Source: a virus
DNA length: 64,000 nucleotides
IMG/VR virus record: IMGVR_UViG_3300031951_000022
Span: 64,001 to 128,000 of that record
Direction: 5' to 3' (one strand)
Made by a program: the position numbers and the translations under genes. Positions 13,413-64,000 of the stretch are shown here, one piece after another (within the stretch, counting starts at the first letter, position 1; each line of letters opens with the position of its first letter). The notes beneath the pieces are model-generated. The model saw nothing but the letters and a program-made list of their open reading frames with translations, had not been told where the DNA came from and did no database searches.

Positions 13413-14429
13413 ATGGCTAATAGAAAATTTGAAGCAACACCAGAACTCACAAATTTACTTGTAAAGTCTGGTTCATTACATAAAGAAGAGGCTCTTGCCG
13501 CAAACCACGAGTTTGCCAAGGCCCTAGAACTACCCCTTCGTCAGGGTGTTCTAAGTGGTAATATTCTAGATGACATTTTCGAGCCAATTCAACTTGCTCA
13601 AAGTGCCACTCCAGAATTTCCACTAGACTTCCTTGCTCCTGGTTCGGAGAAGGATTTCGTGGCTTATACCATCCCAAATCATGGTTATATTCCACAAAAG
13701 CACGTTGAAGGCGATTATGTCATGGTTCCAACCTATGATATTGGCGCCAGCATCGACTATCTTCTAAAGTATGCCCGTGACGCCCGCTGGGACGTTGTTG
13801 GTCGTGCTATGGAAGTTCTCGAAGCACAGTTTGTCAAGAAGATGAACGATGATGGTTGGCATACTCTTCTTGCTGCTGGTGTAGACCGTAACATCGTGGT
13901 ATATGATACCGACGCTAACGACGGCCTATTCAGCAAGAGACTAGTAAGTCTTATGAAGACTGTGATGCGCAGAAACGGTGGTGGTAACTCAGCTAGTAAC
14001 AATCGTGGTATGTTAACAGACCTCTATGTTTCTCCAGAGGCTATGGAAGACATCCGCAATTGGGGTCTAGATCAGATCGACGAAGTTACTCGTCGTGAAA
14101 TCTACACTGCTGCTGATGGCACTCTCAACCGTGTTTTCGGTATCAATCTCCATGATCGTGATGAGCTTGGTGAAGGTCAGCAATATCAACTCTTCTACGA
14201 AAACGTTCTCGGTGGAACTCTCCCCGGCGACGAAACTTTCCAGAAGACTGAGCTTGTTGTTGGTCTTGATCTTCGCAAGAGAGATAGCTTTATTATGCCA
14301 GTTCGTCAAGAAGTTCAAATCTTCGAAGATGATACTCTTCACCGTCAGAAGAGAGCCGGTTTCTACGGCTGGGCAGAGCAAGGCTTTGCTGTTCTTGACA
14401 ATCGTAGAGTGCTCCTCGGCGCCCTATAA
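13413..14429 (+). CDS. Major capsid protein (HK97-like fold expected)
   Basis: 338 aa from the ATG behind AGGGAG. Codon usage suggests high expression; followed by a terminator. Confidence 0.85.
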   Translation: MANRKFEATPELTNLLVKSGSLHKEEALAANHEFAKALELPLRQGVLSGNILDDIFEPIQLAQSATPEFPLDFLAPGSEKDFVAYTIPNHGYIPQKHVEGDYVMVPTYDIGASIDYLLKYARDARWDVVGRAMEVLEAQFVKKMNDDGWHTLLAAGVDRNIVVYDTDANDGLFSKRLVSLMKTVMRRNGGGNSASNNRGMLTDLYVSPEAMEDIRNWGLDQIDEVTRREIYTAADGTLNRVFGINLHDRDELGEGQQYQLFYENVLGGTLPGDETFQKTELVVGLDLRKRDSFIMPVRQEVQIFEDDTLHRQKRAGFYGWAEQGFAVLDNRRVLLGAL

Positions 14430-30600: not shown

Positions 30601-33504
30601 TTGACCATGTTTGGTCAAAAGGTTACCAAGCTAGATGTTGGTATACCTCGCACTGGTAGTGGCACAGCTAGAGCCGGCGGGTCTAGTGCTGGCAGAAGAA
30701 ATTTCGACAATCAAGGAGCCGGTGTTCCGCAAAACAGAGACATTGGCACCGCTGGATTATTGGCTTTGACTGCTGGAGGCGCCGCGGTTGAAGGTTTATC
30801 TAGTGGTATTGGTGGCTCAACCGGAGAAGTTATTAGTGCTGTAGGTAACGACGTTTTAAATTATTCTGCTATTGGAGCAACTATAGGATCTATGGTTCCC
30901 GTGGTGGGAACGGCAGCAGGAGCGGCAGCAGGAGCATTAGTTGGTTTAACTACAGGCTTATTTAAGTCTACAAAAGCAGTAAATGAATTCAATCTAGAGC
31001 TTGCTACAAATAAAAAGAACGCAGCCGCAGACGCATCAGATGCTAGTATTGCAAAGTTTGCTAAAACCGGATCACAATTAGACAAGGGTAATGCTTTATT
31101 GGACTTTAGTAAAACGATGAAAGCCGAACAAGAATTGGCTACCCAAAAGGGTGGTCTTAGAAAGATGACCACACAAGAGAACGTACAAGTGCAACAAAGA
31201 GGTGCTGAGCAAGCTATAGCTATACTTTCAGCAGAAATGTTGAATACGGGCCAAACGCTGGAACAAGTACAAAAGGCTATGGATCCAGCTTTGTTTGATA
31301 GTTTAAGTATAGAAATAGCCGAAGCTCAGTATGATTATATTGAAGCACAAAAAAGAATCAATCAAGAGTTTCAAGACGCAGAAGGAAACGAAGCTAAACA
31401 AAGAGATATTAAAAAACAAGGACTAATAGAACTTAAAAAAATTAGAGATAAAAATGTACAACTGCTCTTAGCAACTGCCGACGCAGAAGTTAAAACTAGA
31501 GAGAATGCTAAAAAACAAGCTGAAGTTAGAAAAGTAGTTGAATCTTTATTAGATAAATATCGTAAGATATCTGCAAGCCTTGAAAGATTTGGAGATGAGA
31601 TAGAAGCTATCAAGGAAAGCGCAGCTAACTCAGTTAAAGGTTTTCAGGGACAAGCAGAATTCAATAATGTTGACAGATCTAATGAGAAGACTCTTGGTAA
31701 TCTTAGTGCATATTCTATGGCAGAGGTTGCAAAGGTTGCCAACCAAGTTGGTAATTTAGCTGGAGGTCAAACAGGACAAGAATTAAGCAATAATATACAG
31801 TCAGCAAAAGTAGCTCAAGATATTTTGCCTGGAATTTTACGAAATACTATGGCAAAAGATTCTCAAGGGGTTGTGGATGAGTTAAAAGCGGCTTTTGCTA
31901 AGGAAAAGATTCCGTTCCCTGACTTTTTAGCTAAAGATATTACCTCTGTATTAGGAGATGAAAGTGTTAGCCGTCAAGGAAAAAGCTTTAGTGAACTAGC
32001 CGACGACCCATCTTTACTTAATAATCTAAGCAAAGCAATGGGCGTCTCATTAGAAACTGCTACCTTATACTTGAAAAAATATAATGATGCCCTACAAGCT
32101 GCTCTTACAGAGATTAGTAATAGTTATGCTAAATCTATGGCAGAGGCGGCAGAATGGCAATCTAAAGCATCAGATATTAGAGCCAGATCTCGCATTGAAT
32201 TAGACCAAGCACTAGGAAAAAATATTAGTTTGGAAAGAATGAATGAGCCATTTGATCAGAGAATCAGAGGATTAACGGGAGATGTGGTTTTCGGAGGCAG
32301 CACCAATCCAGCAGAAATTGCGAGAGGTATGAGAGACTCTATAGCTGCAAAACCAGGAGAAGAAAAAAAACTACAAGACTTATTAGCAAAAGACCTAGCT
32401 ATTGACCCCAACAACGAAGCAGCTAAAAAAGCATCCACAGCAGCTATTGTTAATCAAACGAAAGCTTTGGCTAATCAAAATAATGGTATTAATAATGCTC
32501 GTAAAGCACTAGAAGAATTAGCTAATGATAGCAGCGCAGCGGCTAATGCGTTAACAAAAATTCAAGAAGTCCAGAGAGTGTCTCAAGGAGCTACAAACTT
32601 TGCTCGCAAAGCACTAACAAGTGATAATGAGCAACTAGCAGAAATGAATGACGCATTAACCGCATATACTAAGATTGTATCTGGACAAGCTACCAAAGAC
32701 GAACTGAATTCTTTACCTTTTAGACAGCAAGGTTTTGAAGGTATGGATATGATTAAGGATTTAGTTCCAGAAAGCATGGGTAGGCGCATTGAAGCTCAAA
32801 TGACCAGACAAATGATCGAAGCTATGCCAAATGGACAAGAGCTTCTTAATAAGCCTATGGCTCTTCGTCCAGACGGAGAAAAAATTACTTTAGGTGGAGC
32901 GCTAGATAATGCCGCATCTGGTATAGATCCAGTACAACAAAAATATATTGACGCATATACAGAAGCAACATCTAGACAAGCAGAAGCAGCAGATGAACTA
33001 GGTAAATCGGCAGTCTCTGTTGCTCAAGTTTTTGAAGGTAAGATGGTAGAGATTCTAAATAGAATTGGACAAACAATGGGCGTAAAAGACGGAGTTCCGG
33101 CTATACCACAAGCTGGCGGTGCCGCCGGAGCACCTATTCCTTTTGGCGCCCTCCCAGCAGCAGCACCCAATAATGGTGGACAGGTCGCAAATAATGGTAA
33201 TGCAGTAGCTAATATACCCGGTTTCGGCCCCATCACAGTAGATGATGCCGCTAAACAATTTGCTCAAAGTATTAGCTCTGGATTTGAGGCATTTGGTACT
33301 TATGTACAAGCCCTGTCCGGTATTAAGTTGCCAGAAAAAATTGAACTATCTGGTAATCATGTTGTAGACGTTAGAATCACCGGAGCGGCTGCTTTTGATG
33401 CTCTAAAGAAAGATTTTACAAATATGATTTCTGTAGAAGTTAGTAAGGCTATGAATCAGATATGGAATCAAACTGGCGGTGGAATAGGAAGCGCCCCAAA
33501 ATAG
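27628..33504 (+). CDS. Tail tape measure protein (1958 aa)
   Basis: TP901-type TMP core (LAQAG...INAVS.KFAV...ETIATGLRT.F.RI), long helical Ala-rich sequence, two GG...DTVPAMLTPGEF repeats. Confidence 0.92.
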   Translation: MAQGFNLTAEINLRGPSNIRTVVADIRRQLGSIDVNINPRLDQNAARNITSLNNSLTRLNSTLSATRTSATDAARAIRDLTQAANGLGNRSIQQNINNAAAACQNLGRSAGGAGGDIGGASTRIEEFGRQSALAVRRFAAFSLVTGTIYALTGAISRGIDAFIDFDKEFVRLQQVTGESAKGLKGLANAITSLSTSLGVNSAELTTVAVTLAQAGLSATDTKRALDALAKSSLAPSFDDINETVEGSIALMRQFGIGANDLEKALGSINAVSAKFAVEASDIITAIQRTGGVFATASRGVSEGTDALNEFIAVFTSVRQTTRESAETIATGLRTVFTRIQRGQTIDALKEFGIELTDLEDKFVGPFEAIRRLSEGLSTLDPRDVRFSQIVEELGGFRQIGKVIPLIQQFAVAQQALKTAQTGQDSLAADAATAQLSLANQIAKVREEFTALIRSIGESESFRSFVSLALQLASALIQVADAAKGVLPALTAIAAIRGASFLTQFVTGFGGGIGGGRGGRGPRRFATGGLVPGSGNRDTVPAMLTPGEFVIRKKAVEQIGTDNLLNMNKGGRVISPAATESKMPQLFMERGGDVSNEIRQQLDTGRKSQGFSGQTAAKGLGKITSLSEQIALSPDLNDVYGGAFLSPEGSVRDLKGSLDKNIISSIVKGTDAYKVLSRASAQTPEGKLVLGELKNIEKAAQAKGDFSLVAESLAKSKSEKIENTILGKVYDAVEDGSKELSSATRISTGGASEATRILKQSNIDNVIGNIYEAIISNAGSPYNEKDRDSSNEAFDFPSGLGSVASNFGSGRLAKIITDAKTRFTSGNISSFLNKVKNFESKKLSKEVEAILDRPDILSGFSTRELADKRASSARSEVKRLVDTRIQRRASGGSISGEDTVPAMLTPGEFIINKKAAKRIGSSSLHNLNRADRIGYNKGGAVGHIQHFASGGGVQKFFAGGAVAGVRMLFTSMPRIIQGFQRLSTSVQTSSKGLTMFGQKVTKLDVGIPRTGSGTARAGGSSAGRRNFDNQGAGVPQNRDIGTAGLLALTAGGAAVEGLSSGIGGSTGEVISAVGNDVLNYSAIGATIGSMVPVVGTAAGAAAGALVGLTTGLFKSTKAVNEFNLELATNKKNAAADASDASIAKFAKTGSQLDKGNALLDFSKTMKAEQELATQKGGLRKMTTQENVQVQQRGAEQAIAILSAEMLNTGQTLEQVQKAMDPALFDSLSIEIAEAQYDYIEAQKRINQEFQDAEGNEAKQRDIKKQGLIELKKIRDKNVQLLLATADAEVKTRENAKKQAEVRKVVESLLDKYRKISASLERFGDEIEAIKESAANSVKGFQGQAEFNNVDRSNEKTLGNLSAYSMAEVAKVANQVGNLAGGQTGQELSNNIQSAKVAQDILPGILRNTMAKDSQGVVDELKAAFAKEKIPFPDFLAKDITSVLGDESVSRQGKSFSELADDPSLLNNLSKAMGVSLETATLYLKKYNDALQAALTEISNSYAKSMAEAAEWQSKASDIRARSRIELDQALGKNISLERMNEPFDQRIRGLTGDVVFGGSTNPAEIARGMRDSIAAKPGEEKKLQDLLAKDLAIDPNNEAAKKASTAAIVNQTKALANQNNGINNARKALEELANDSSAAANALTKIQEVQRVSQGATNFARKALTSDNEQLAEMNDALTAYTKIVSGQATKDELNSLPFRQQGFEGMDMIKDLVPESMGRRIEAQMTRQMIEAMPNGQELLNKPMALRPDGEKITLGGALDNAASGIDPVQQKYIDAYTEATSRQAEAADELGKSAVSVAQVFEGKMVEILNRIGQTMGVKDGVPAIPQAGGAAGAPIPFGALPAAAPNNGGQVANNGNAVANIPGFGPITVDDAAKQFAQSISSGFEAFGTYVQALSGIKLPEKIELSGNHVVDVRITGAAAFDALKKDFTNMISVEVSKAMNQIWNQTGGGIGSAPK

Positions 33505-33516
33505 GATAGATAACAC

Positions 33517-35253
33517 ATGAATAATATTTCTGTTTATTATTGTAAAGCTAGCGAATCTCCTGGATCATCACATAGATTATCGCCGGCCCCAACCATATCT
33601 ATTAGTCCAGAAATTTACTATGCAAATGATAATGTAATTGGCTATACTTATGCTATTACTCTTAATGGCTATGCTAATGCTCTGAGATTAGATCTGGATC
33701 CAGGGTCTACTGATTTTGGCTTAGAGCCAACCGTTGAACATATAGGACATATTAGAGAAGTATTCAATACTAATGGTGGTACTTTATATATTAAGGATGG
33801 ATCTAGAAACATTATTGTGGCTAAAGGTGCCACTATTAAAAATATTCAATTTGATACATCTGAGAATAGATGGGTAAATTATGCCCCATATACTGTAGAA
33901 GTTGAGTTTAATGAAGTTGATTTTATCGGTTGTTCTAATAACTCAGCTGTTGCCTGTAATAGTAGTTTTTTTCATTCTCCTCACCAAAGCGCGACTGTTA
34001 CAGCAGATAATTTGGTAGATATCAAAAAACATAAAATTAAAGAGTTTAGTGATAAATGGTCATTTACTGTAGAAAATGAAATTTACGATAATTATAATGG
34101 ATTTTTAAATTCTTTTTTTAATGTGTCTTATACAATATCAGCAACAGGCAAAAATTATTATGTTGGTGATAACTTGGTACCAGCTTGGCATCAAGCTAAA
34201 TTATTTGTACAAGAAAGATTACAAAAACAAGTTTTAGGACTATTGAATGGCGTTTTACAAATTACCCCTCTTAATATAGATGCTTGTGCAGCTTCGGGAG
34301 ATATTTCTAGTTTACACAACGTAGATACTTCTGCCCCAAGAGCTGGAGGATTATTGCAAAATCTCAACACTTTGAGAGATGGTGTTACTAGAACATTTGA
34401 TATTTATAACGAACAAATTTCTTGTGATACTTCGGAAGCGGAGGGCACATTTAGTGTAACCTATAATGCCTTAGTTAAGCGTAGCGATCCCGCTTTGAGT
34501 CCTTCGGCAAATGCCGCTATTTTCACTTATAATAAAAATATTACAGTAACTGATGATGATGGATTAAATGCTACTATTAATCTACAAGGCACAGTACAAG
34601 GACTAGTTAGAGGAGGATTTATATATTATAATAATGACTATGTATTACCATCTACTGGAACAATAGTTATAAATGTCGATAGCGCAGAAACTAAATATAG
34701 TAATGCTGTGGCTTATTTTAATGCCAAGATAGGTACAGCAACTGATTTGTTACAATCATTTAAAGCTTCGCTCAATATTACCAAAAGACAACTATTGCTC
34801 AAGGGTCCAGACGGATATCCTTCGCCATCTTCTTTTATTTTGGAACATAGCTATCATGATGGCTCTATTGGCATTACCGCTGTTTATGATAAGTCTCAAA
34901 CAGAAAATGCTGACAGAGGATACTATACATTATCCATAGTAAGAAATGATCCTGTAGAACTTATACAAGAGTTTGTTATTCCTGGCAGAATACAAGGACC
35001 ATTAATTCAAAGACTTAATGCTTTAACATCTAAAACAATAGCTATTAATATTGAAGGGGCCGATAGGTCGAACAAAATTTGTAACACGATAAACAACCTA
35101 GATCTATGCAGTCTTTACCCAGCTTTTAATATTCCTAATTATACTCAACTATTACAAGACAATGATATGTGGATCAAAACTAAAGAAGACTATACAATGA
35201 ATATTGTAGATGGTTCGTTTAGTATTGCTCTGGAATATACTTCTAAAGGATAA
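33517..35253 (+). CDS. Tail-tip/baseplate protein, paralog A
   Basis: Follows the TMP; co-linear similarity to 35258..37093. Confidence 0.6.
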   Translation: MNNISVYYCKASESPGSSHRLSPAPTISISPEIYYANDNVIGYTYAITLNGYANALRLDLDPGSTDFGLEPTVEHIGHIREVFNTNGGTLYIKDGSRNIIVAKGATIKNIQFDTSENRWVNYAPYTVEVEFNEVDFIGCSNNSAVACNSSFFHSPHQSATVTADNLVDIKKHKIKEFSDKWSFTVENEIYDNYNGFLNSFFNVSYTISATGKNYYVGDNLVPAWHQAKLFVQERLQKQVLGLLNGVLQITPLNIDACAASGDISSLHNVDTSAPRAGGLLQNLNTLRDGVTRTFDIYNEQISCDTSEAEGTFSVTYNALVKRSDPALSPSANAAIFTYNKNITVTDDDGLNATINLQGTVQGLVRGGFIYYNNDYVLPSTGTIVINVDSAETKYSNAVAYFNAKIGTATDLLQSFKASLNITKRQLLLKGPDGYPSPSSFILEHSYHDGSIGITAVYDKSQTENADRGYYTLSIVRNDPVELIQEFVIPGRIQGPLIQRLNALTSKTIAINIEGADRSNKICNTINNLDLCSLYPAFNIPNYTQLLQDNDMWIKTKEDYTMNIVDGSFSIALEYTSKG

Positions 35254-53417: not shown

Positions 53418-54166
53418 ATTATTTGATATGCGGACTTATTCGCTAGGATATTTTCTTTACCAGCAACCCCAAATCTATATACTCCTCCACCAAATACTAC
53501 ACAACTATAGTTCTGATTAGAGGCAACAATAAAAGACTCTAATTTATGATGTACAATATTATTGGCGCCATTAATAGTCTCTTTAATATTTGTGTCATAA
53601 TTATCTATAGATACTATAAACCTATACTTTGGATTAATAACAACAATATTGTGTAGAATTTCCATGTCTGATAGTTCTTTATCTAACATGCTTTGAATTC
53701 TCCAGGCATATTTAATGTTGTATTTGTTAATAATATTTTCAATATTAGCATATGTGAAGTGGTCGCTGTTGCTTTGATGACGAATAAAGATAATTTTTTG
53801 TGGCAAAGTGTCGCAGTTGGAGATTTGCTCACATATATTGTCTAGGTTCTCTAAGCTCATATTTCTTAGGCTAATCACGGCTAGATAGTGTAGCTTATTG
53901 GTGGCATGGAACTTATTAACCTTTTCTTCCATAGAAGCATCTTCCATATCAAATTGCTTAAACCATTTAGGTTCTCTATATCCTAGGCACTTTTTATCGT
54001 TGATAATATAAAACTCTTTATCATCATCGTATGCTTCTATTACCAAGTTTTCCTGTTGGTATTGGTCTAAATATTGTAAAGCGCAGTTTGTTTGAGTAAT
54101 ATTATCATATAGTGCATATGTGCAATTTTTACAAGAAGTATGAATTGTATTTATAGATGGAATCAT
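53414..54166 (-). CDS. Hypothetical protein (N-terminal Cys cluster)
   Basis: HTSCKNC..A...QT.C; ATGA overlaps. Confidence 0.65.
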   Translation of the reverse strand: MIPSINTIHTSCKNCTYALYDNITQTNCALQYLDQYQQENLVIEAYDDDKEFYIINDKKCLGYREPKWFKQFDMEDASMEEKVNKFHATNKLHYLAVISLRNMSLENLDNICEQISNCDTLPQKIIFIRHQSNSDHFTYANIENIINKYNIKYAWRIQSMLDKELSDMEILHNIVVINPKYRFIVSIDNYDTNIKETINGANNIVHHKLESFIVASNQNYSCVVFGGGVYRFGVAGKENILANKSAYQII

Positions 54167-55815
54167 AGAAAATCTTCTTTCTTTATACTATCAGGATGTG
54201 TTCTCATTGTTTCGTACACAATTTTATTATTAAGATGACCCTCTAGTGCTTCTACAATATTCTGTTTAGTAAGGCTCATAATTGATCCATTTCTAGCTAC
54301 TAGTCCAGAAACAGCGTCTCTTATCAATACTTGAATATGGGCAGTGTTTATTAGGGATGGCTCGTTAATGACATTATGACAAATATATTCAATAAACTCT
54401 TTACTATTTAAGCCAGAAGGCACCTTCATTGATGAGTGTTGCGCCTGTTTAACATTAGGACTATCCCAGGCCACTTTGGACTTAATGTCTATACTGTCAA
54501 AACAAGCATCCCATACCGCATATACATGATCCCAGGTATATTTGCTAATACATGCTTGTCTAATTTTTGTGCTATTATCTAAACGTATTGTTTGATCAGT
54601 ATTAACAAAGAAATTGTACATAATGTTGGTAGTAGCATCAATATCAGGATAAGCTCTATCTGCATTAGTCTCCATTTCTCTGAACATTCTAATGACCGGA
54701 ATTTTAATGCCTTTTAATGATTCGCACACCTCAGACATGGCACTATAATCAACAGAAGCTATTTGTACTCCGCAAGCCGCAGCCTCAACCTGTGGCATAC
54801 CAAAGCCTTCGCAAATAGCATATTGAATATACAAATCAAATAAGTTGTATATATCATTTAGGTCTCTTGTGGATATGCCGTGTACAGGACTAGAAACTGT
54901 GGCCGTATGATTTCCACAGCTTTTACACATAGCTAATCCATTGTGAAACTTAGACGGAAAAAATTTCTTACAATGACGACAGTGATATGTGAATAGTGCT
55001 TTATCTAGTACTCCGTATTCAAGAAGTATAGATGGAATATCCCAACCATTATCTTCTGGATAGGACGTGTGTAAATAAAGATATGTTTTGTTACATAGTT
55101 CTATTTGATTATTAGCTTTGAGTGCTTCTAAATATTTCTTAAAAGCTAACACTAGATCAGGAATAAGTTTCCGCTTTTGGTTTCTCATTACTGTGCCAAT
55201 TATATTATAATCATCACCCAAATGCTTAATTTTGTGAGCTTTTTTATCTACTATAGGATAAAATTCTTCTGGATTAATACCAGCATTAGCTATTTGCGGA
55301 AATAGATTAATTTTATTACCACAAGACTTAAGCAGGGTTTGTTTGGCCCACTCTGTATATGGTATTACTACATCAGCATTAGAAAATGTAAATAGCCAAT
55401 CATTTTTCGGAGGAGCTGAATCTGTGGCAGGCATAATCACCCAATTAAAGTGCTTTTTATATGGGCTTGCTTCTTGATATGCGAACATCCAGTAATCACG
55501 AATGTCAAAGACTATATGCGGCTTAAAGTCTGCCAAACAGCGATTAAACCTCCATAAACCAAATTGGTTAATATTATTAGACTTATACTGTTCTTGTCTA
55601 GGGTCATTAGCCTGAACAGCATTTGGATAAACTTTCCAAGGAATATCTTTAATGGCAGGATTAGCAGTATCACAATAACAAGCCATTTCAGCGACTTCAT
55701 ATTTGCCGCTATTATGAAGACGAGTTAAAAGTTCTTTACCATAAATAGAGTAGCCGGTATTTAAACCGCTAAAGTCATTGACTGTGAGAATTCTTTTTTT
55801 TGTTAGTTTACCCAT
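54163..55815 (-). CDS. GT4-family (GT-B) glycosyltransferase with a Zn-finger insert
   Basis: NTGYS, RNQKRK and EGFGMPQVEAAACG (EX7E) motifs; CRHC...CKSC insert. Confidence 0.87.
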   Translation of the reverse strand: MGKLTKKRILTVNDFSGLNTGYSIYGKELLTRLHNSGKYEVAEMACYCDTANPAIKDIPWKVYPNAVQANDPRQEQYKSNNINQFGLWRFNRCLADFKPHIVFDIRDYWMFAYQEASPYKKHFNWVIMPATDSAPPKNDWLFTFSNADVVIPYTEWAKQTLLKSCGNKINLFPQIANAGINPEEFYPIVDKKAHKIKHLGDDYNIIGTVMRNQKRKLIPDLVLAFKKYLEALKANNQIELCNKTYLYLHTSYPEDNGWDIPSILLEYGVLDKALFTYHCRHCKKFFPSKFHNGLAMCKSCGNHTATVSSPVHGISTRDLNDIYNLFDLYIQYAICEGFGMPQVEAAACGVQIASVDYSAMSEVCESLKGIKIPVIRMFREMETNADRAYPDIDATTNIMYNFFVNTDQTIRLDNSTKIRQACISKYTWDHVYAVWDACFDSIDIKSKVAWDSPNVKQAQHSSMKVPSGLNSKEFIEYICHNVINEPSLINTAHIQVLIRDAVSGLVARNGSIMSLTKQNIVEALEGHLNNKIVYETMRTHPDSIKKEDFL

Positions 55816-55825
55816 AATTGTTCTA

Positions 55826-55867
55826 AATAGAAGTCTCTAGCACCATTAAGATACTAGAGACCCTATT
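55826..55867 (-). terminator. Hairpin downstream of ssb
   Basis: AATAG..GTCTCTAG-N13-CTAGAGAC.CTATT; weak U-tract. Confidence 0.45.
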
Positions 55868-55894
55868 CAGATTCCTTCTTTTTTTAGTGTTAGA

Positions 55895-56275
55895 TCAGAA
55901 AGCAACTGTTTCTGTTTCATTCTCAGTTGCCGAGCTATTAGCTCTTTGCGTCTTTACAATATGACCAAAATTATTCACTCTGATCTTTATCGTACTATGC
56001 TTAACTCCGTCTTTTTCCCAGCTATCATTCCTTAATGAGCCTTCGACCATAATTAGATCGCCCTTCTTAAAAGATGCGGCTACGGTCTCGGCGGCACTAT
56101 CCCATGCTTCACACTGAACAAAAGATGTAACCTTGTCCTGTGTGCCGTTAGCCTTCTTAAACTCTCTGGAAACAGCAACGGTAAAATTAACAACTGCTGT
56201 TTTCTTATCTCCAGATGTTACAAAGCGTAGTTCTGGATCACGAGCAAGATTACCACGAAGCATTACAATATTCAT
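55895..56275 (-). CDS. ssb: Single-stranded DNA-binding protein
   Basis: MN.V.L.GNLARDPELR...FTVAVSR...CEAW...KGD...VEGSL...W; acidic tail ending in F. Confidence 0.95.
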   Translation of the reverse strand: MNIVMLRGNLARDPELRFVTSGDKKTAVVNFTVAVSREFKKANGTQDKVTSFVQCEAWDSAAETVAASFKKGDLIMVEGSLRNDSWEKDGVKHSTIKIRVNNFGHIVKTQRANSSATENETETVAF

Positions 56276-56324
56276 ATCAATCGTCTCCTTTTAAAAGTAA
56301 ATTACCAAAGTACCAACGTATCTT

Positions 56325-56352
56325 ATTATAAAAAGTGGGGCGTAGGTGTCAA
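56325..56352 (-). promoter_or_regulatory. Consensus sigma70 promoter for ssb (TTGACA-16-TATAAT)
   Basis: Both hexamers match consensus; the -35 box contains the dnaE-C TGA stop. Confidence 0.75.
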
Positions 56353-58748
56353 GTTCTAGCTACGTAAGCCTTGTCTACAATAAGGCCATCTCCGCTCTTA
56401 GACTTTGACCCCTTAACAATAATAATATTTCCGACGAACAACAGGTTTTTGTATTCGCTATATTTTTCTGGAAAAAACACGATAGAGTCAATAGATCCCG
56501 TGGTGTCCGTCATTGTAACGAAAGCCATTTCTGCTCCAGGATTTTTACCGGTTTTGGTTTTCGTAACATTAATAAAGTCTATCTCTCCACCAAGTATAAG
56601 ATTGTCTTTTTGTGTTGTGGTTTTCAGTTCTTTGCAATTAATATTAGTCATACTAATATCATACATATCAATCTTAGAACAAGTAATAGAACAACCCAGC
56701 AACACATCCTCAGAATCTGCTAACCACTCAGGACTATCGTCTAGAGAATAAGGAGGATTATTTAATGACACTATCATATCTTGGATATTGCTTTTGCGGT
56801 TTTTATTAATTCTAGGCAGTCCTAGCAGAAACTCTAGACAGCCCTTTAAGTCTTTAAAAGAGACTAGATGCACACTGATATGCTCTATCTCTTTTTTGGT
56901 TAAGCTGCTAATTAAATTATATTCAAATAGCATCTTATTGCGAGTCATAGGCAAAAAGCTTAAAGCTCCACTTTGTATCAAAGCCTTTGCTGCTGTAGAA
57001 TTAATATTGTTTAATACCAAAAATAAAAACTCTAACCATGTTGTTTTGGTCAAGTCCATTTTAGATATTATAGATATTAGCTTATCATATACTGATTTGC
57101 CGACACCCTTAATGTCTGTTAATCCAAAATATATAGTATTATTTTTTAAGATAAATAGCTCATTTTTGTTTCTAATATCTGGAGTTTTAACCAATACGTC
57201 CATTTCATTGGCGTTTTGAATTAACTCCTTAATTTCTGCTTGAGGATCTATTTTATCCTTAGCAAATCTTAAATATGATGCAAAAAAGATTTTGGGGAAG
57301 TGTGCTTTAGTATAGGCGGATAGATATGCATTAATAGCATAGCTTACTGAGTGAGACTTATTGAACGAATATCTTTGACTCTTTTCGATCCAACTAAAAA
57401 TCTGTTCTGCCTCATCAACTGTTACAATGCCTAGCTTTTGAGACCCCTCCAAGAACTTACTTTTGACCTTTGCCATTTCTTCCGGTTTTTTCTTACCAAT
57501 AGCCTTTCTTAACATATCTGCTTCTTGCAGATTAAATCCAGCTATAGCCTTAGTTATTTCCATAGCCTGTTCTTGATATACCATTTCCCCATAGGTGTTT
57601 TGCAAAGAGTCTTTCAGAGCTTCGTGAAAATAGTCCACAGACTCTAATCCATTTTTTTTGTCTATATAATGATTAGATACTGTTTTACCATCTCTCACAG
57701 CCTCAAGACAATTATGAACTATTACATTACCAGCAATAAAATTGTGGTGGGGCGACTCCATAGATATATCATAAACCTTTTTATATCCAGTGCTAATTTT
57801 ATCTATATAAGTAGCCCATTTACAGTCATCGCTATAAGATAGTCTATATTTTTTTCTTGCTTCTATAATAGTATCTATATCAATATTACCTTCTGAATAT
57901 TCTCTATGATGGTTTGGACATAAATAACAAAGATTTTCAACATCATTATTGGTATGTCTATTTCCTTCAAGGTGATTAACATCTAAAGATCCTTTATCCC
58001 AATCACAAAAAACACATCTGTATTCATAGTTTTGATAACATCTTAATTTATATGATTTAATACCATCAATATTATCAATACTAATTTTTGAAGAATGTCT
58101 GGATTTAATCTTTTTCTTTAATTTTTTGGTTCCGTTTTTCTTTCTTATAACCAATATCCTCATTCCGGGCTTCATATCTTTAAGCTCTACCCATCCATTA
58201 GGAGTTAAAAGCTTATGGTCATCTGTACATTCTACTTTATACCAATTGTATGGTAATGTATTAGTTTTTCTTTCATTAGTCTTTATCTTGATCTTGAAAC
58301 ATTCTTTAATACCACTATCAATAATATCTAATATTTTGTTTGAAACTAATTTTTTAGACTTTTCATCATACGATATAATTCTGTCATATTGACGATCTTT
58401 AAATAGTTTTTCTATTGAAATAGTTTTATTTCTTAAACGACCATCGGTATGAGTATAATAGCCTACTAAGATCTTAGTATCTCCAGCAATACACCCAGGT
58501 CTCATAATACTAATCAGGGCAGAAAGCTGCTCTATGTTTTCTGGCTTTAGTTTTTTAGCCATAGACCTTCCCAGTCTAGACTCTAGCTGAAAACAACCCT
58601 TGGTATTACCGTCAGATATAAGATCCCACGTTCTTTGACATTCCAGATTAATATTTTCTATAGAAGAATCGAACTTTATACTCAGTCCATTATTCTGCTC
58701 TACTATATCAAAGGAACATCCACAAGGGTATTGGTATTTTTTAGACAT
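56349..58748 (-). CDS. dnaE: DNA polymerase III alpha, C-terminal half (fingers/HhH/OB), intein-containing
   Basis: GCFQLES, MRPG, TYG.MVYQEQ, AD.LRKAIGKK, YSFNKSH, FGL.DIKGVG and KTG..MAF OB motifs. Confidence 0.92.
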   Translation of the reverse strand: MSKKYQYPCGCSFDIVEQNNGLSIKFDSSIENINLECQRTWDLISDGNTKGCFQLESRLGRSMAKKLKPENIEQLSALISIMRPGCIAGDTKILVGYYTHTDGRLRNKTISIEKLFKDRQYDRIISYDEKSKKLVSNKILDIIDSGIKECFKIKIKTNERKTNTLPYNWYKVECTDDHKLLTPNGWVELKDMKPGMRILVIRKKNGTKKLKKKIKSRHSSKISIDNIDGIKSYKLRCYQNYEYRCVFCDWDKGSLDVNHLEGNRHTNNDVENLCYLCPNHHREYSEGNIDIDTIIEARKKYRLSYSDDCKWATYIDKISTGYKKVYDISMESPHHNFIAGNVIVHNCLEAVRDGKTVSNHYIDKKNGLESVDYFHEALKDSLQNTYGEMVYQEQAMEITKAIAGFNLQEADMLRKAIGKKKPEEMAKVKSKFLEGSQKLGIVTVDEAEQIFSWIEKSQRYSFNKSHSVSYAINAYLSAYTKAHFPKIFFASYLRFAKDKIDPQAEIKELIQNANEMDVLVKTPDIRNKNELFILKNNTIYFGLTDIKGVGKSVYDKLISIISKMDLTKTTWLEFLFLVLNNINSTAAKALIQSGALSFLPMTRNKMLFEYNLISSLTKKEIEHISVHLVSFKDLKGCLEFLLGLPRINKNRKSNIQDMIVSLNNPPYSLDDSPEWLADSEDVLLGCSITCSKIDMYDISMTNINCKELKTTTQKDNLILGGEIDFINVTKTKTGKNPGAEMAFVTMTDTTGSIDSIVFFPEKYSEYKNLLFVGNIIIVKGSKSKSGDGLIVDKAYVART
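57711..58493 (-). mobile_element. Cis intein (261 aa) with an HNH homing-endonuclease domain
   Basis: RPG|CIAGDT...CTDDHK...VYDISM...HNFIAGNVIVHN|C. Internal CVFC...VNHLEGN..NN..ENLCYLCPNHH. Confidence 0.92.
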
Positions 58749-59442
58749 TTTCGTTCTTGGTGAAGGCGTTCTTAAACTTAATCTTTTGTCCCAAATTTCT
58801 ATGTAACTTTAAAAATCTAATAATTATTTCAGCGGTATCTCTAACGTCCTTTAAGGCGTCGTGGGCACCTTCTTTGGAAATTCCGAAATAATCTCGCAAA
58901 CTATCAAGAGTGTAGCTTTTTAAGTCATTATTATTTTCGAACCAATAAAAGATTAAATTCATACCATCAATAACATCTCTTGGATAAAAAATATCTGTTC
59001 GCCCTTCCTTATTTAGGTTGCCGTACTTATTACTAAGCCGATCAACAATATGAAGGTCGAATCTGTTGATATTGTATCCCGCCGCAATAGGAGCGCTAAA
59101 TTGGCTTTTCTTAGAACTTCTGGAATGATATTTATCCAGATAGTTAATAAACATCTTCCATGAGTGTTCTTGTTTTGGATATTGATGCCAAGCCTTTAAA
59201 ACATCATCTTGGGAACACCCCTTAACTTTAGAGTGAAATTCCAAAATGTCGGTTTCGTATCTATGGTCTTTGTTATTTTCTAGAACTTCTGGCTTGAAAT
59301 GCATATTAAATTCTGACCCATCAATAACCTCTAATTGTAGAGGATCTATCATAAGTGCAGCAATTTGTACAGGACTGCAAACCCTAGGATCAGAACCGTC
59401 TGTTTCAAAATCAAAAACGCAAATCTTATTATAGTTGATCAT
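58741..59442 (-). CDS. DEDDh 3'-5' exonuclease (DnaQ-like)
   Basis: FDFETDG, GYNI.RFD and HDALKD motifs. Confidence 0.9.
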   Translation of the reverse strand: MINYNKICVFDFETDGSDPRVCSPVQIAALMIDPLQLEVIDGSEFNMHFKPEVLENNKDHRYETDILEFHSKVKGCSQDDVLKAWHQYPKQEHSWKMFINYLDKYHSRSSKKSQFSAPIAAGYNINRFDLHIVDRLSNKYGNLNKEGRTDIFYPRDVIDGMNLIFYWFENNNDLKSYTLDSLRDYFGISKEGAHDALKDVRDTAEIIIRFLKLHRNLGQKIKFKNAFTKNENV

Positions 59443-59614
59443 TTACTTCTACTTCTACATTGGGTGATAGAAACGTTGTATTCTTTTCATTTGCTGTTGC
59501 ATGAGCATTGATTGATCGACAGCAGCTTACTTTTACTGTTGCAGTCTTCTTATATTCAATACCTTTGTGTGTGAATGTTTCGCCTTCTGCAATTTCTGAA
59601 AACTTCTTAATCAT
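59429..59614 (-). CDS. Small hypothetical protein (61 aa)
   Basis: Coupled overlaps on both sides; KKFSEI..GETF...G.EY.K...SCC. Confidence 0.7.
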   Translation of the reverse strand: MIKKFSEIAEGETFTHKGIEYKKTATVKVSCCRSINAHATANEKNTTFLSPNVEVEVNDQL

Positions 59615-61495
59615 ATTTCTACTCCTTCTATTAAGAGATCTTGTATTGTCATAATCTTATCTAACATCGCTACGCCTAAAACATCAAATTTAATAATACC
59701 AATAGCTTCTAGGTCTTGCATTTCCATTCCGGCAATTAGCTGATTATTTTTACTATCAAAAACCATAGGACATAATTCGCTTAATGGCTCTGAACTAATA
59801 GCAATACCAGCCGCGTGTTTGGACTGATTAGACTTAGTTCCTTCTAATCTAATAGCCTGCTCAAACCTTTTTGCCAACGGCCCCTGTAGTTCTCCTTTGT
59901 CGTCAATATAGCACCACTCCTTGAGCTTTTCAGAATTATTTTCTAAAGCCCAACGAATAATAGATGCCTCTCCAGTTTCTTCTTTCATTTCTTGTAGTTC
60001 ATCTGCAATCTTAGCTTCATCTGGAATATTTTTAGTAATACGATTCATTTCTTCAAAACTAATATTACCATATACTCTTAATACGTCCTTAAGAGCACCT
60101 CTTCCCTTGATGGTGTTAAAGGTAACCATTTGAGATACTTTATCATGACTATACTTATCTTTGATATATTGAATAATTACTTCACGCTTATTAATAGGAA
60201 CGTCAACATCAATATCTGGCATACTAATACGATCTTTGGTGTTTCGGCCAGAATTATAAAATCTATCAAAGAATAGGTTGTATTTGATTGGATCAATACT
60301 GGTAATACCTATTAGATATGATACCAGACATCCAGCCGCACTTCCTCGTCCCGGTCCCGGAAGCCACCCACTTGTTCGCACATAATTTACAATATCTTGT
60401 ACTATCAAAAAGTAGCTACTTAAATTCGCCCCCTGTAAAACATCTAGTTCATATTTGATTCTATCTACATATTGTTGTTGATCGTCTTTTGGTATGATAT
60501 TAGCAATTTTTTCTTTCCAGCCCTTACGACAAAGCTCTCTAAGATATTCTGCGTCATCAAAACCTTTCGGACAATCAAATGGAGGTAGTTTAGGCTTGCT
60601 TAGGATATCATATTCTTCTATAAGACTAGCCACATATTGTGTGTTTGCTATTTCTTCTTCTGTATGCAAGGCTGCCATTTCTTCTTGAGAAAGAATATGG
60701 TAATTATCTGATGTGAAAAAGCATCCCATAGGCACATCTTCGTCATTACTAATCTTACGACTAATTTCTGGAAATGTAGTTTTCAAATTGTTACAGAGCA
60801 AAATGCGCTGATCAATAGCGTCCTCTTTACGACAATAATGTGCGTCTGGAGTACAAATAACTTTTGTATCTGTTTGCTTACCAATTTCTCTAATAGCTTT
60901 TGTAAGCTCTTTTTGTACGGTTAGATTTTCGGCATCCATTAGTTGGGCCTCTAAAAACACACCACTAAAGTGCTTCTTAAGATCTAAAACATGATTCTTT
61001 CCTAGCTCTAGCCAGTTTGGTTTGAGTTGATAATTATCCAGAATAGTGTCAGCTAGGGTTGATCCTAGATGTCCGGTGATAGCAATTAAATTACCGTCAT
61101 TTAAAGCATAGAGGCTTTTTAGGTCTAGTCTAGGCTTATGATAATAATTCTCCGGTCTATTGGATTCTGATACTATACGAACGAGAGTTTTCCATCCATC
61201 ATAGTTTTTAGACAAAATTAGAAAATGGCTTAATTCTTTATTATGCTTTTCTTTAATGGTTGGATCATTGTCGCAAATATAAAGCTCACAACCAAGAATC
61301 GGCTTAATGCCAGCCTGTTTCATTGCCATATAAAATTTAACAGCACCGGCAATATTACCATGATCTGTGATAGCACATGCTGTTGCTCCAATCTCTTTGC
61401 ATCTTTCTGCCATTTGTTCTGGTTTAGATAGTCCATCCAAAAGTGAGAACATAGCCCACTTAGGAATGGACATGAAGCGGTATATAGTTGCTCAT
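59611..61495 (-). CDS. dnaE: DNA polymerase III alpha, N-terminal half (PHP/palm/thumb); reading frame interrupted at 61453-61462
   Basis: MSNYIPLHVHS* in one frame and MFSLLDG...ITDHG...GCE...DAHY...GPGRGSAAG...PDIDVD...KHAAG...KFDVLG in another. Confidence 0.9.
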
Positions 61496-61740
61496 GTCCA
61501 TCCAATTTTCTCCTTGTTGGCTACGACCTTCTCACATAATTTAATAAATATATGTAAAGGAAAGTCTAGTTTCATTTTATTAATATCTTTTTTGACCCAC
61601 CAAACATTATTTTTGACGTATCCTTTAGAACTATCAATTCTATCTAATGACCCGTCTTTGTCAAGATCAATTTCTTCGCCTGTGATGGCACACTTTTTAT
61701 TCTGGGTTTCTGTATAAAGTTTCCACAAAAATTCAATGGG
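61492..61740 (-). pseudogene. Free-standing HNH/EndoVII-like homing endonuclease domain lacking a canonical start
   Basis: FLWKL...QNKKCAITG...SLDRIDSSKGY.KNNV.WV...INKMK. No in-frame ATG or RBS after the upstream stop; its own stop overlaps the dnaE ATG. Confidence 0.6.
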
Positions 61741-61747
61741 TATGTAG

Positions 61748-62791
61748 CTATTCAGCCGAGCCAGGAGCCTTGTACTTTCCAATAGTATATCCCGGAACTG
61801 TGTATTCGTCAACTACATTTTCCATCCCCTTGAGTTGAATATCATGCTTAATTTGTTCGCACTTGGTCATTGCTGTATCAACAGAACACAACTGACCATC
61901 TCTATACTCAAGGATTGGTAGAACATGACTATTTTGAAATGTTGTTTTACCAAAATGACAAAGCTTATTACATTTCCAAGACTTATTTAATTGAGGGACT
62001 TTAGTGCTTTTAATTGTTTCAAATTTTTGCCTAATCATATCTTCTGTTTTGGGCAGGTCGTTCTTATCGTAGCATATGCTAAATGCTCCGCCATCATTAA
62101 TGAAATTAATTGTGAATATGATATGTTCTATTTTTGGATACAGCTGACTTACAGCATAATGATAAATTCTTAATTGGGGGTCATTATGTAATTTTGCTAA
62201 GGTTTTTTCTTCGCCAGTTGCCCAATCTAATCTACGACCAGTTTTCCAGTCTACAATTTCAATAGTATTATCGTCAATAGAGGTAATAAGGTCAATAGTG
62301 CCTTTAATAGCCAATTGTCCTTCTAGAATTTCTCCATCAATATTGTATTTATAATTAGCCCACGGCTTATTGATCACAATATCAAAGTGCTGCTCTGGCT
62401 GTAGTATGTTTCTCAACCTAGGGTCAAAGGATTTGTTGTGGTCTGTGATTGCTTTATAGCACCACTTGTGGCAGTCTTTAAAATCTTTAACATCCCACTC
62501 ATGGTGTTTAAACTGGGACGTATAATAATCATAGACCTGTTCAATAATATGGTCTAAATTATACTTGTCAACACTAATGTCTCCAAGAATATCGTCATTA
62601 TATATTTTTTGATTATTCTGTGTACATAGCTTAATATGGGCTAATATTTCTAATACCTTATGACAAATTGTGCCTTTATCGGCTTTAATTCCAGATGGCG
62701 AACGTATACCTAGGACATATTCAATAAAATACTGTTGAGGACACATAGAGTGTGTTCCATAAGAACTGCTTCTTAAATATGTGATTATAAT
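61748..62791 (-). CDS. PD-(D/E)XK nuclease (Cas4/AddB-like, possible Fe-S cluster), probable ATT start
   Basis: RSSS....MCPQQY, KGTI.HKVLE, KGTIDLI, IVDWKTG, QL.IY and C..LC motifs. Confidence 0.85.
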   Translation of the reverse strand: MIITYLRSSSYGTHSMCPQQYFIEYVLGIRSPSGIKADKGTICHKVLEILAHIKLCTQNNQKIYNDDILGDISVDKYNLDHIIEQVYDYYTSQFKHHEWDVKDFKDCHKWCYKAITDHNKSFDPRLRNILQPEQHFDIVINKPWANYKYNIDGEILEGQLAIKGTIDLITSIDDNTIEIVDWKTGRRLDWATGEEKTLAKLHNDPQLRIYHYAVSQLYPKIEHIIFTINFINDGGAFSICYDKNDLPKTEDMIRQKFETIKSTKVPQLNKSWKCNKLCHFGKTTFQNSHVLPILEYRDGQLCSVDTAMTKCEQIKHDIQLKGMENVVDEYTVPGYTIGKYKAPGSAE

Positions 62792-63426
62792 GGTAGTATT
62801 CCTTGATTTTGAAGAAAGGTCAAAATTGTATTGTTTTTTTGTTCAAGTGTCATATTAGAGTTATCTAATACTAGACTAAATCTTGTCCAATCATAATTAT
62901 CTGGATCTAATGCTCGTTCTGGTTCAGAGTCTGAGTTGAATATGTCTTTGGTTAGTCTGATAACTATTCCATTATTATCTAATACGCTATTTACCTCATT
63001 AGGGAAGCGATTGTCTAAAATAATAGCCAAATCATGCTGCTCTCTATATATCTTTGATATAGTAGCATCCACCCAAATATTACCGTACATTTTACGAAAA
63101 ATTTCAGTGCCAATAACCTCCATTACCTGTCGCCCAGTAAGATAGTCATTAGTAACCATGTCATTATAGTGTTTTTGCTGAATCTCTATAGGCATATCTG
63201 ACCAACGAATATTGGTTAAAGTATTCTTATCCTCGTCTGTACCATAGCACTGCTCATGTGTTAATCCTAGCAGATTCATACAGATGTCTTGTTTTAATGG
63301 ATCAGCAAAGCTATATAGCTTGCAAGAAATTGGTAGGAAATTTTGCTTAATAAACTTTTCTACAAATTCCCCTGAAGTACTTTTGCCAGATTGTTTTCTT
63401 CCAGAAAAGGCTAAGATTTTTGTCAT
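62785..63426 (-). CDS. Deoxynucleoside monophosphate kinase
   Basis: SGRKQSGKST, FADPLK, RQVM..IGTE.FR and D.RFPNE motifs. Confidence 0.88.
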   Translation of the reverse strand: MTKILAFSGRKQSGKSTSGEFVEKFIKQNFLPISCKLYSFADPLKQDICMNLLGLTHEQCYGTDEDKNTLTNIRWSDMPIEIQQKHYNDMVTNDYLTGRQVMEVIGTEIFRKMYGNIWVDATISKIYREQHDLAIILDNRFPNEVNSVLDNNGIVIRLTKDIFNSDSEPERALDPDNYDWTRFSLVLDNSNMTLEQKNNTILTFLQNQGILPL

Positions 63427-64000
63427 ACAATACTTTCTAAGTAGGTTTTGATTTCTGTATTAATTTCTTCCTTGCTCATTTCGCCAACGTCTGATTTGCT
63501 GATTTGCGGAATAAAAATTCTGTATGTATTCTGACACTTATTTTTGATTTGTTCTGCTGCTTTCCGTCCAGCGTCATCGTTATCTGTAAGAATAATAAGG
63601 CTCATAGCTCCGGAAGAATCTAATAGTATTTTTTGTCTATCGCTTAAAGAAGACCCAAACATAGCAACACTATTGTGTATACCATTTTCTTCTAGTCTCC
63701 AAACATTACCCGGACTTTCAACAATAATCGCAATGCCGCTTTTTAAAATATGCTCTTTAGCAAACCAGAAGTTATACAAATAGTTTTGACTCTTAAAGTC
63801 AGCATTATGCTTCCACTTGGGAAACTTCCATGAGTTCTCCGATGTGGGGCAAGGATTGGATGAACTGTGATATGCTTTGCAAGCGGGGCATTTTTCATAT
63901 GTGCTACGGCCTGTGCATCCTACCATGAAGTCATAATTATTATCATAGATCGGAACCACCACTCTGTCACTCATCTCCTTGCCTTCTTTGGTACATAATC
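63423..64000 (-). CDS. DNA primase (TOPRIM domain), 5'-truncated by the window edge
   Basis: RVVVPI...VG.TGR, KWKH, LYN, IIVESPGNV and TDNDDAG motifs. Confidence 0.88.
   Translation of the reverse strand, partial: LCTKEGKEMSDRVVVPIYDNNYDFMVGCTGRSTYEKCPACKAYHSSSNPCPTSENSWKFPKWKHNADFKSQNYLYNFWFAKEHILKSGIAIIVESPGNVWRLEENGIHNSVAMFGSSLSDRQKILLDSSGAMSLIILTDNDDAGRKAAEQIKNKCQNTYRIFIPQISKSDVGEMSKEEINTEIKTYLESIV

Follow-up and report, generated by a model that had tools for sequence, protein, structure and literature searches.

A short stop-codon gap in phage dnaE, probably a translational bypass site carried by a homing-endonuclease cassette

Gene layout and the interruption of dnaE

The window analyzed here is a 64,000-nt stretch (positions 64,001 to 128,000) of the 157,712-nt virus record IMGVR_UViG_3300031951_000022, which comes from an uncultured phage. 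Its DnaE polymerase is split into two genes (56349-61501), between which lie a 61-aa ORF and a DEDDh exonuclease gene (58741-59442). A cis intein (Pfam Intein_splicing, residues 110-346) lies within the C-terminal half; the end of the N-terminal half showed no intein motif. Outside the window, the record (G000:C1) holds ten tRNA genes (53464-57554 and 13672-13747), with unusual calls for Ser(ACT) and Ile(TAT), and at each of its ends (1-1665 and 155816-157712) there is a repetitive gene built of tandem units, possibly an assembly break point. The gene for the N-terminal half of DnaE, on the minus strand, is the only PHP/dnaE match of the record and is the subject of this report. Upstream of it, on the same strand, is a gene for a PD-(D/E)XK (Cas4-like) nuclease (61748-62746). 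The stop codon of this nuclease gene overlaps the dnaE ATG in most related phages that lack the insert described below, the overlap being 4 nt in 46 of 57 such alleles. In the window, the interval between the two genes holds a start-less, C-terminal remnant of an HNH-type endonuclease (61492-61735, minus strand), with 96% identity over 80 aa to the C-terminus of an intact ORF in contig L002. Next to it, the Y-I-P codons at 61736-61747 (minus strand) match the start of dnaE in the insert-less phage L005. This stretch is probably a leftover of the ancestral dnaE start that marks the 5' edge of an inserted cassette, and similar leftovers are present in L266 and L306.

The likely start of dnaE is ATG 61501 (M-D-M-S...), 8 nt behind a Shine-Dalgarno (SD) motif, AAGGAG (61510-61515, minus strand); an equivalent start with an SD-like motif was found in 57 of the 59 insert-bearing alleles. 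A preliminary description of this DNA had placed the start at ATG 61495, overlapping the stop codon of a preceding gene. That overlap exists, but the stop codon belongs to the start-less HNH remnant, and the start itself is likely to lie two codons upstream. From ATG 61501, a first coding segment of 13 codons (61463-61501) ends in H-V-H-S, its serine codon TCC (61465-61463) being the putative take-off codon. Here dnaE is interrupted by a 10-nt coding gap (61462-61453), which opens with the stop codon TAA (61462-61460) and ends in the putative landing triplet GCT (61455-61453). Coding resumes at ATG 61452 with an intact second segment of 613 codons (59611-61452, minus strand), recognized from its sequence as the rest of the PHP domain and the polymerase domain of the DnaE N-half.

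The minus-strand sequence quoted in the preliminary description was found at its place, and the effect ascribed there to removal of the 10 nt was borne out. Without them the product reads HVHS-MFSLLDG, with the spacing found in the 57 insert-less phage alleles, in 80 of 80 bacterial loci and in Thermus aquaticus DnaE (2hpi). Furthermore, the Pfam PHP model matches the long frame only from model position 8, so that the first HxH strand would be supplied by the short upstream frame. In line with a functional first segment, as had been proposed, its P, L, H and S codons vary synonymously among insert alleles while Y-x-P-L-H-V-H-S is kept; the other PHP metal ligands are retained, also as described earlier, and downstream of the gap the frame stays open.

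An assembly error is very unlikely to be the source of the 10 nt, because the identical insert occurs in L002, an independent contig, and because related phages yielded 59 distinct alleles, which carry 35 different insert sequences. The insert is thus not unique to this contig, which the preliminary description had named as grounds for doubt. No second occurrence of the insert motif was found within the window. Scanning the entire record for a further cassette of the same anatomy gave one weak candidate beyond the dnaE site, near record position 103144 on the plus strand (window ~39144), where a GTG start with 8 of 9 pairs precedes a long open frame; it falls within a long annotated ORF and is probably a chance match. 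Promoter and terminator scans gave nothing above chance level. In INPHARED there was no cultured phage with a close DnaE (best, ~34%), and a literature search, with most subscription papers outside its range, found no report of a dnaE gap at this site.

Alleles, predicted RNA folds and mobility

Comparison of the 5' ends of related phage dnaE genes, which the preliminary description had suggested, revealed an insert at exactly the same site in 59 distinct alleles and its absence from 57, a ratio that is not a frequency. The set was assembled by protein searches and then enlarged by DNA pattern searches; in the protein-based searches, the insert was present in 3 of 15 and 10 of 80 viral loci, and it was present in 0 of 80 bacterial dnaE loci. 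Since the insert is probably of single origin, allele counts do not represent independent events. Several matches were rejected as insert alleles: the metagenome matches L427, L440, L449 and L499 arose from wrong parsing of ordinary dnaE, L435 carries a 1-nt frameshift in an unrelated lineage, and L308 and L310 are not dnaE.

The inserts measure 6 nt (1 allele), 7 nt (2), 8 nt (3), 9 nt (13), 10 nt (19), 11 nt (19) or 12 nt (2) and span all three frames, with 21 alleles at 7 or 10 nt, 22 at 8 or 11 nt and 16 at 6, 9 or 12 nt. The first insert triplet is a stop codon in all 59 alleles (31 TAA, 25 TAG and 3 TGA), and with search patterns that left this triplet free a stop was still there in 77 of 77 and 29 of 29 dnaE matches. 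The last triplet is a serine TCN codon in 38 alleles, ACT, GCT or GCC in 19, TGA in 1 and TTT in 1; its middle base is C in 33 of the 35 distinct inserts and its third base is free. The lack of a matching landing codon pointed out in the preliminary description applies to the window allele (UCC versus GCU) but not as a general rule, the last triplet being identical to the take-off codon in 18 of 59 alleles. The match is perfect in the two shortest gaps, which also have the weakest hairpins: L309 (a classic stop-hop of 6 nt) and L236 (7 nt). Downstream of the gap the frame is intact among insert alleles; four short cases that were checked break later, in a manner resembling separate intein or nuclease insertions. 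In L158, L172, L447 and L001, the N-half of dnaE terminates at about codon 460 in an intein-like stretch with a stop behind it, after which most of them have a separate nuclease-like ORF; this ending occurs with and without the gap and resembles the fractured-gene arrangement of PMC2677866. In L198, dnaE is broken at codon 422 of the N-half by a different endonuclease-like ORF.

Two hairpins predicted around the gap are backed by comparative support. In H1 (61466-61501, minus strand; predicted at -19 kcal/mol), the first nine coding bases, in the start codon region (61501-61493), would pair with the HxH codons (61474-61466). In all 59 insert alleles the predicted fold of this region has an energy of -13 to -22 kcal/mol, against 0 to -8 kcal/mol in every insert-less allele, so that the ranges do not overlap, and double-sided changes at pairs 1 and 7 indicate covariation. 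In H2 (61441-61461, minus strand), insert bases 61461-61455 would pair with the F-S-L codons (61447-61441), so that the stop codon would be buried. H2 is predicted in most insert alleles, where the insert pairs with the next two or three codons in two registers and with compensatory changes; contiguous pairs number 6.4, versus 4.5 +/- 0.2 with shuffled partners (maximum of 5.3 in 2000 shuffles). In every ACT, GCT or GCC allele, the odd first base of the last triplet is paired in H2; this could be a trade-off under bypassing, or the base could be the final one of an enzyme-cut intron. An alternative helix, H3 (61431-61471, minus strand; -18.1 kcal/mol), is a prediction in which 61471-61464 pairs with the D-G-L codons (61438-61431), and its apparent conservation is partly forced by the search patterns used. 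H3 is predicted to stack on H2 and, sharing the HxH codons with H1, to exclude H1. The two predicted folds are nearly equal, at -25.3 versus -24.1 kcal/mol in the window and with a mean difference of 0.6 +/- 2.8 kcal/mol across alleles. Structure z-scores were computed on stretches chosen after the fact.

An intact HNH-type nuclease of ~240 aa lies in the spacer upstream of dnaE in seven insert alleles, ending over the dnaE start. Remnants persist in three others, namely the window allele (last 80 codons), L138 and L158 (both shorter), and most of the rest have lost it; no member of this family was found upstream of dnaE in insert-less alleles. The protein matches PHROG endonuclease and HNH families, at family level only. 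In L203, an unrelated HNH-like ORF of 198 aa occupies the same intergenic site without a coding gap, as a second invader of the hotspot. The closely related phages L201 (insert) and L252 (insert-less) share 99% identity upstream and 95% downstream, what separates them being the cassette and ~50 nt of converted coding tract. A protein tree, which was a quick version built from biased sampling, places 13 changes between insert and no insert, at least 4 of them forced by well-supported branches. By this sequence evidence the cassette is mobile, because it distinguishes phages of 95-99% identity and because an intact HNH nuclease adjoins it in seven alleles; its anatomy, conservation and mobility are seen directly in the compared alleles. 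By analogy with known elements, the gap and the recoded flanks probably protect the site from the nuclease of the cassette itself. The nuclease linkage points first to homing-site protection; a regulatory switch, as suggested in the preliminary description, would be no more than a possibility.

Ways of crossing the gap

The best explanation of the locus, to which we assign a probability of about 0.72, is short programmed translational bypassing carried by a homing-endonuclease cassette. A 10-nt bypass was one of three hypotheses in the preliminary description and is the best supported of them, since a hop set off by the stop codon and independent of frame would fit all alleles; bypassing can span gaps in all three frames (PMC5009743). 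From the sequences we infer that ribosomes would start at ATG 61501 and arrive at the Ser codon with the stop codon in the A site, where H2 would sequester the stop and slow release. The peptidyl-tRNA(Ser) would then detach and the mRNA slide by 10 nt, aided by H1 zipping up behind the ribosome. The tRNA would re-pair at GCU, where two of three positions are compatible, and decoding would resume at AUG 61452 to give an intact HxHS-MFSLLDG. At take-off, the 3' arm of H1 would lie in the E site and exit channel; because this arm is inside the ribosome, H1 could be completed only after the mRNA had moved by about the length of the gap, a geometry that would suit the published forward-driver model. 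Before initiation, the start codon would be freed by the H2/H3 fold, and it would be hidden by H1 behind the hopping ribosome. In this model, H1 may act as driver, H2 as a delay of release and the H3/H1 alternation as a switch on initiation. It is possible, if doubtful, that hop length is set by refolding from H3 to H1 and not by codon matching. In the window phage, the nuclease would have decayed and the gap been retained.

Several observations stand against bypassing. By normal decoding rules, no single tRNA reads both UCC and GCU, the pair in the window allele; the landing triplet falls outside the TCN box in 21 of 59 alleles, and the ACT class has a better-matching, out-of-frame TCA 2 nt further on. 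The cassette also lacks a UUCG loop and a mini-SD, and the nascent peptide is only 13 residues long.

Cutting behind the first base of the Ser codon yields TCN in 57 of 59 alleles, as expected if the gap were a micro-intron, excised by a structure-reading endonuclease through cuts within that codon, with a ligase rejoining the ends and the product always being Ser. Such excision would also account for the third-last insert base being free (T, A or G) yet usually paired; the 5' arm of H2 ends 2-3 nt before the end of the insert in 38 of 43 distinct stems, and the phage genome encodes an RNA ligase (PF09414). The ligase gene lies outside the window, at record positions 32837-34148, and adjoins a small HAD-like ORF with which it forms a probable RNA repair pair. 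However, that cut register makes a stop in L291 and a Phe codon in L305, no 3' base is invariant, and the stop-only opening of the gap is left unexplained. The ligase family was found in 1 of 11 insert-bearing records searched and is rare among relatives, RtcB is absent from the phage genome, and there was no Rfam match. In a bulge-helix-bulge intron, a 4-bp helix is flanked by two 3-nt bulges, one on each strand; here, in contrast, both junctions lie on one strand around a helix of 3-9 bp. Excision would have to proceed with neither a ribozyme core nor a bulge-helix-bulge, by some structure-reading enzyme, and we consider it unlikely. The group I-like excision put forward in the preliminary description is not supported either: no register leaves an invariant terminal G (e.g., L013, L044 and L309), and an Rfam search of window positions 55000-64000 gave no intron core and one chance match only.

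It is quite improbable that the first segment is a mere leader and that DnaE starts at ATG 61452 or 61473 without the HxH strand, proofreading being left to a separate DnaQ-like gene. Both ATGs are in the long frame of the window allele, and the DEDDh exonuclease gene at 58741-59442 could fill the latter role. However, the resume frame lacks any ATG, GTG or TTG in 24 of 54 distinct insert sequences, which rules out internal initiation there. Neither ATG in the window has an SD at usable spacing, and the synonymous variation of the Y-x-P-L-H-V-H-S codons and retention of the other PHP ligands likewise argue against a leader.

The +1 frame is open through the insert in the window allele, and the preliminary description had offered a +1 frameshift there. 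A fixed +1 shift is not the general mechanism, since insert lengths are spread over the three frames and four +1-frame alleles are blocked by stops. Allele-specific recoding, with +1 shifts for 7 and 10 nt, -1 or +2 shifts for 8 and 11 nt and readthrough for 6, 9 and 12 nt, would add 2-4 residues; we regard it as very improbable. It requires three mechanisms on one conserved RNA scaffold, shifted-frame stops lie inside the insert in L138, L172, L154 and L291, motif spacing is invariant in the 57 phage and 80 bacterial insert-less loci, and the genome uses all three stops normally, with no suppressor tRNA. Finally, a dead gene or assembly artefact is hardly credible: the adjoining nuclease is decayed, but the same insert recurs in an independent contig and in 59 variants, the downstream frame is intact, and this is the sole PHP/dnaE copy in the record.

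Comparison with known bypassing systems

The bypass of T4 gene 60 lies within a MobA homing-endonuclease element, in which the gap shields the target against nicking and the nuclease undergoes gradual loss; in gene 60 homologues, one and the same tRNA always serves both the take-off and the landing codon (Manning and Atkins, bioRxiv 10.1101/2022.08.31.505936). A 5' stem-loop was suggested to be the forward driver of this bypass (Wills et al., bioRxiv 10.1101/2024.12.09.627546). The dnaE cassette shares with that system a stop directly after the take-off codon (TAA in the window; 59 of 59 alleles), a predicted stem-loop over take-off codon and stop (here H2/H3, with H2 co-varying) and a 5' stem-loop (H1, in 59 of 59 insert alleles and no insert-less one), although its position differs from that in T4. 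Both have a free-standing HNH gene whose end overlaps a new gene start supplied by the element, and both appear, from sequence comparison, to move between close relatives with a homing endonuclease that is later lost while the gap stays. The differences are as clear. The host gene is dnaE and not a split topoisomerase large-subunit gene, the gap is 6-12 nt versus 20-50 nt, and take-off is from Ser versus Gly or Asp, with landing codons that often do not match (UCC versus GCU in the window). Only 13-14 codons precede take-off in dnaE alleles, H1 contains the AUG and lies right against the take-off codon, the pairing partner of H2 is coding sequence past the landing site, and the cassette has no UUCG tetraloop. 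There is also no mini-SD 5-7 nt before the landing site, where the window has the stop and the take-off codon. The dnaE cassette is therefore not a member of the gene 60/MobA family, failing on host gene, codon matching and mini-SD, though it would work in a similar way.

In the terminase of Streptomyces phage Hau3, removal of 10-nt gaps restores homology, and the junction peptide was seen in Escherichia coli for a UAA version (PMC10732093). The likeness to dnaE lies in a 10-nt block, a slow A-site codon at its 5' end and a 5' stem-loop proposed as stimulator. In contrast, Hau3 uses the rare sense codon UUA and developmental control, whereas dnaE has a true stop, variable gap length and a nuclease cassette. 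The byps of Magnusiomyces mitochondria are mobile inserts of 27-55 nt with unassigned codons, made harmless by hopping, and no natural in-frame stop-hop was known to a 2016 review (PMC5009743). The dnaE inserts resemble byps as mobile inserts that would be neutralized by hopping; byps are longer, mitochondrial and tied to unassigned codons. L309 resembles synthetic stop-hops, amounting to a literal Ser-stop-Ser hop.

To our knowledge, gene 60 with its homologues is the one well-studied bacterial case of programmed bypassing, to which the Hau3 candidates can be added. If bypassing of the dnaE gap is real, it would be an independent invention of the process, in a replicative polymerase. The cassette, at ~70 nt, is compact enough for testing as a unit, and its alleles form a natural series, with gaps of 6-12 nt, three stops and both matched and unmatched landing triplets, to which the window contributes an allele with an unmatched landing triplet and a half-deleted nuclease. 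Gene callers would truncate such polymerases at the first PHP motif. The allelic series bears on whether refolding of the mRNA in the exit channel drives and measures ribosome sliding.
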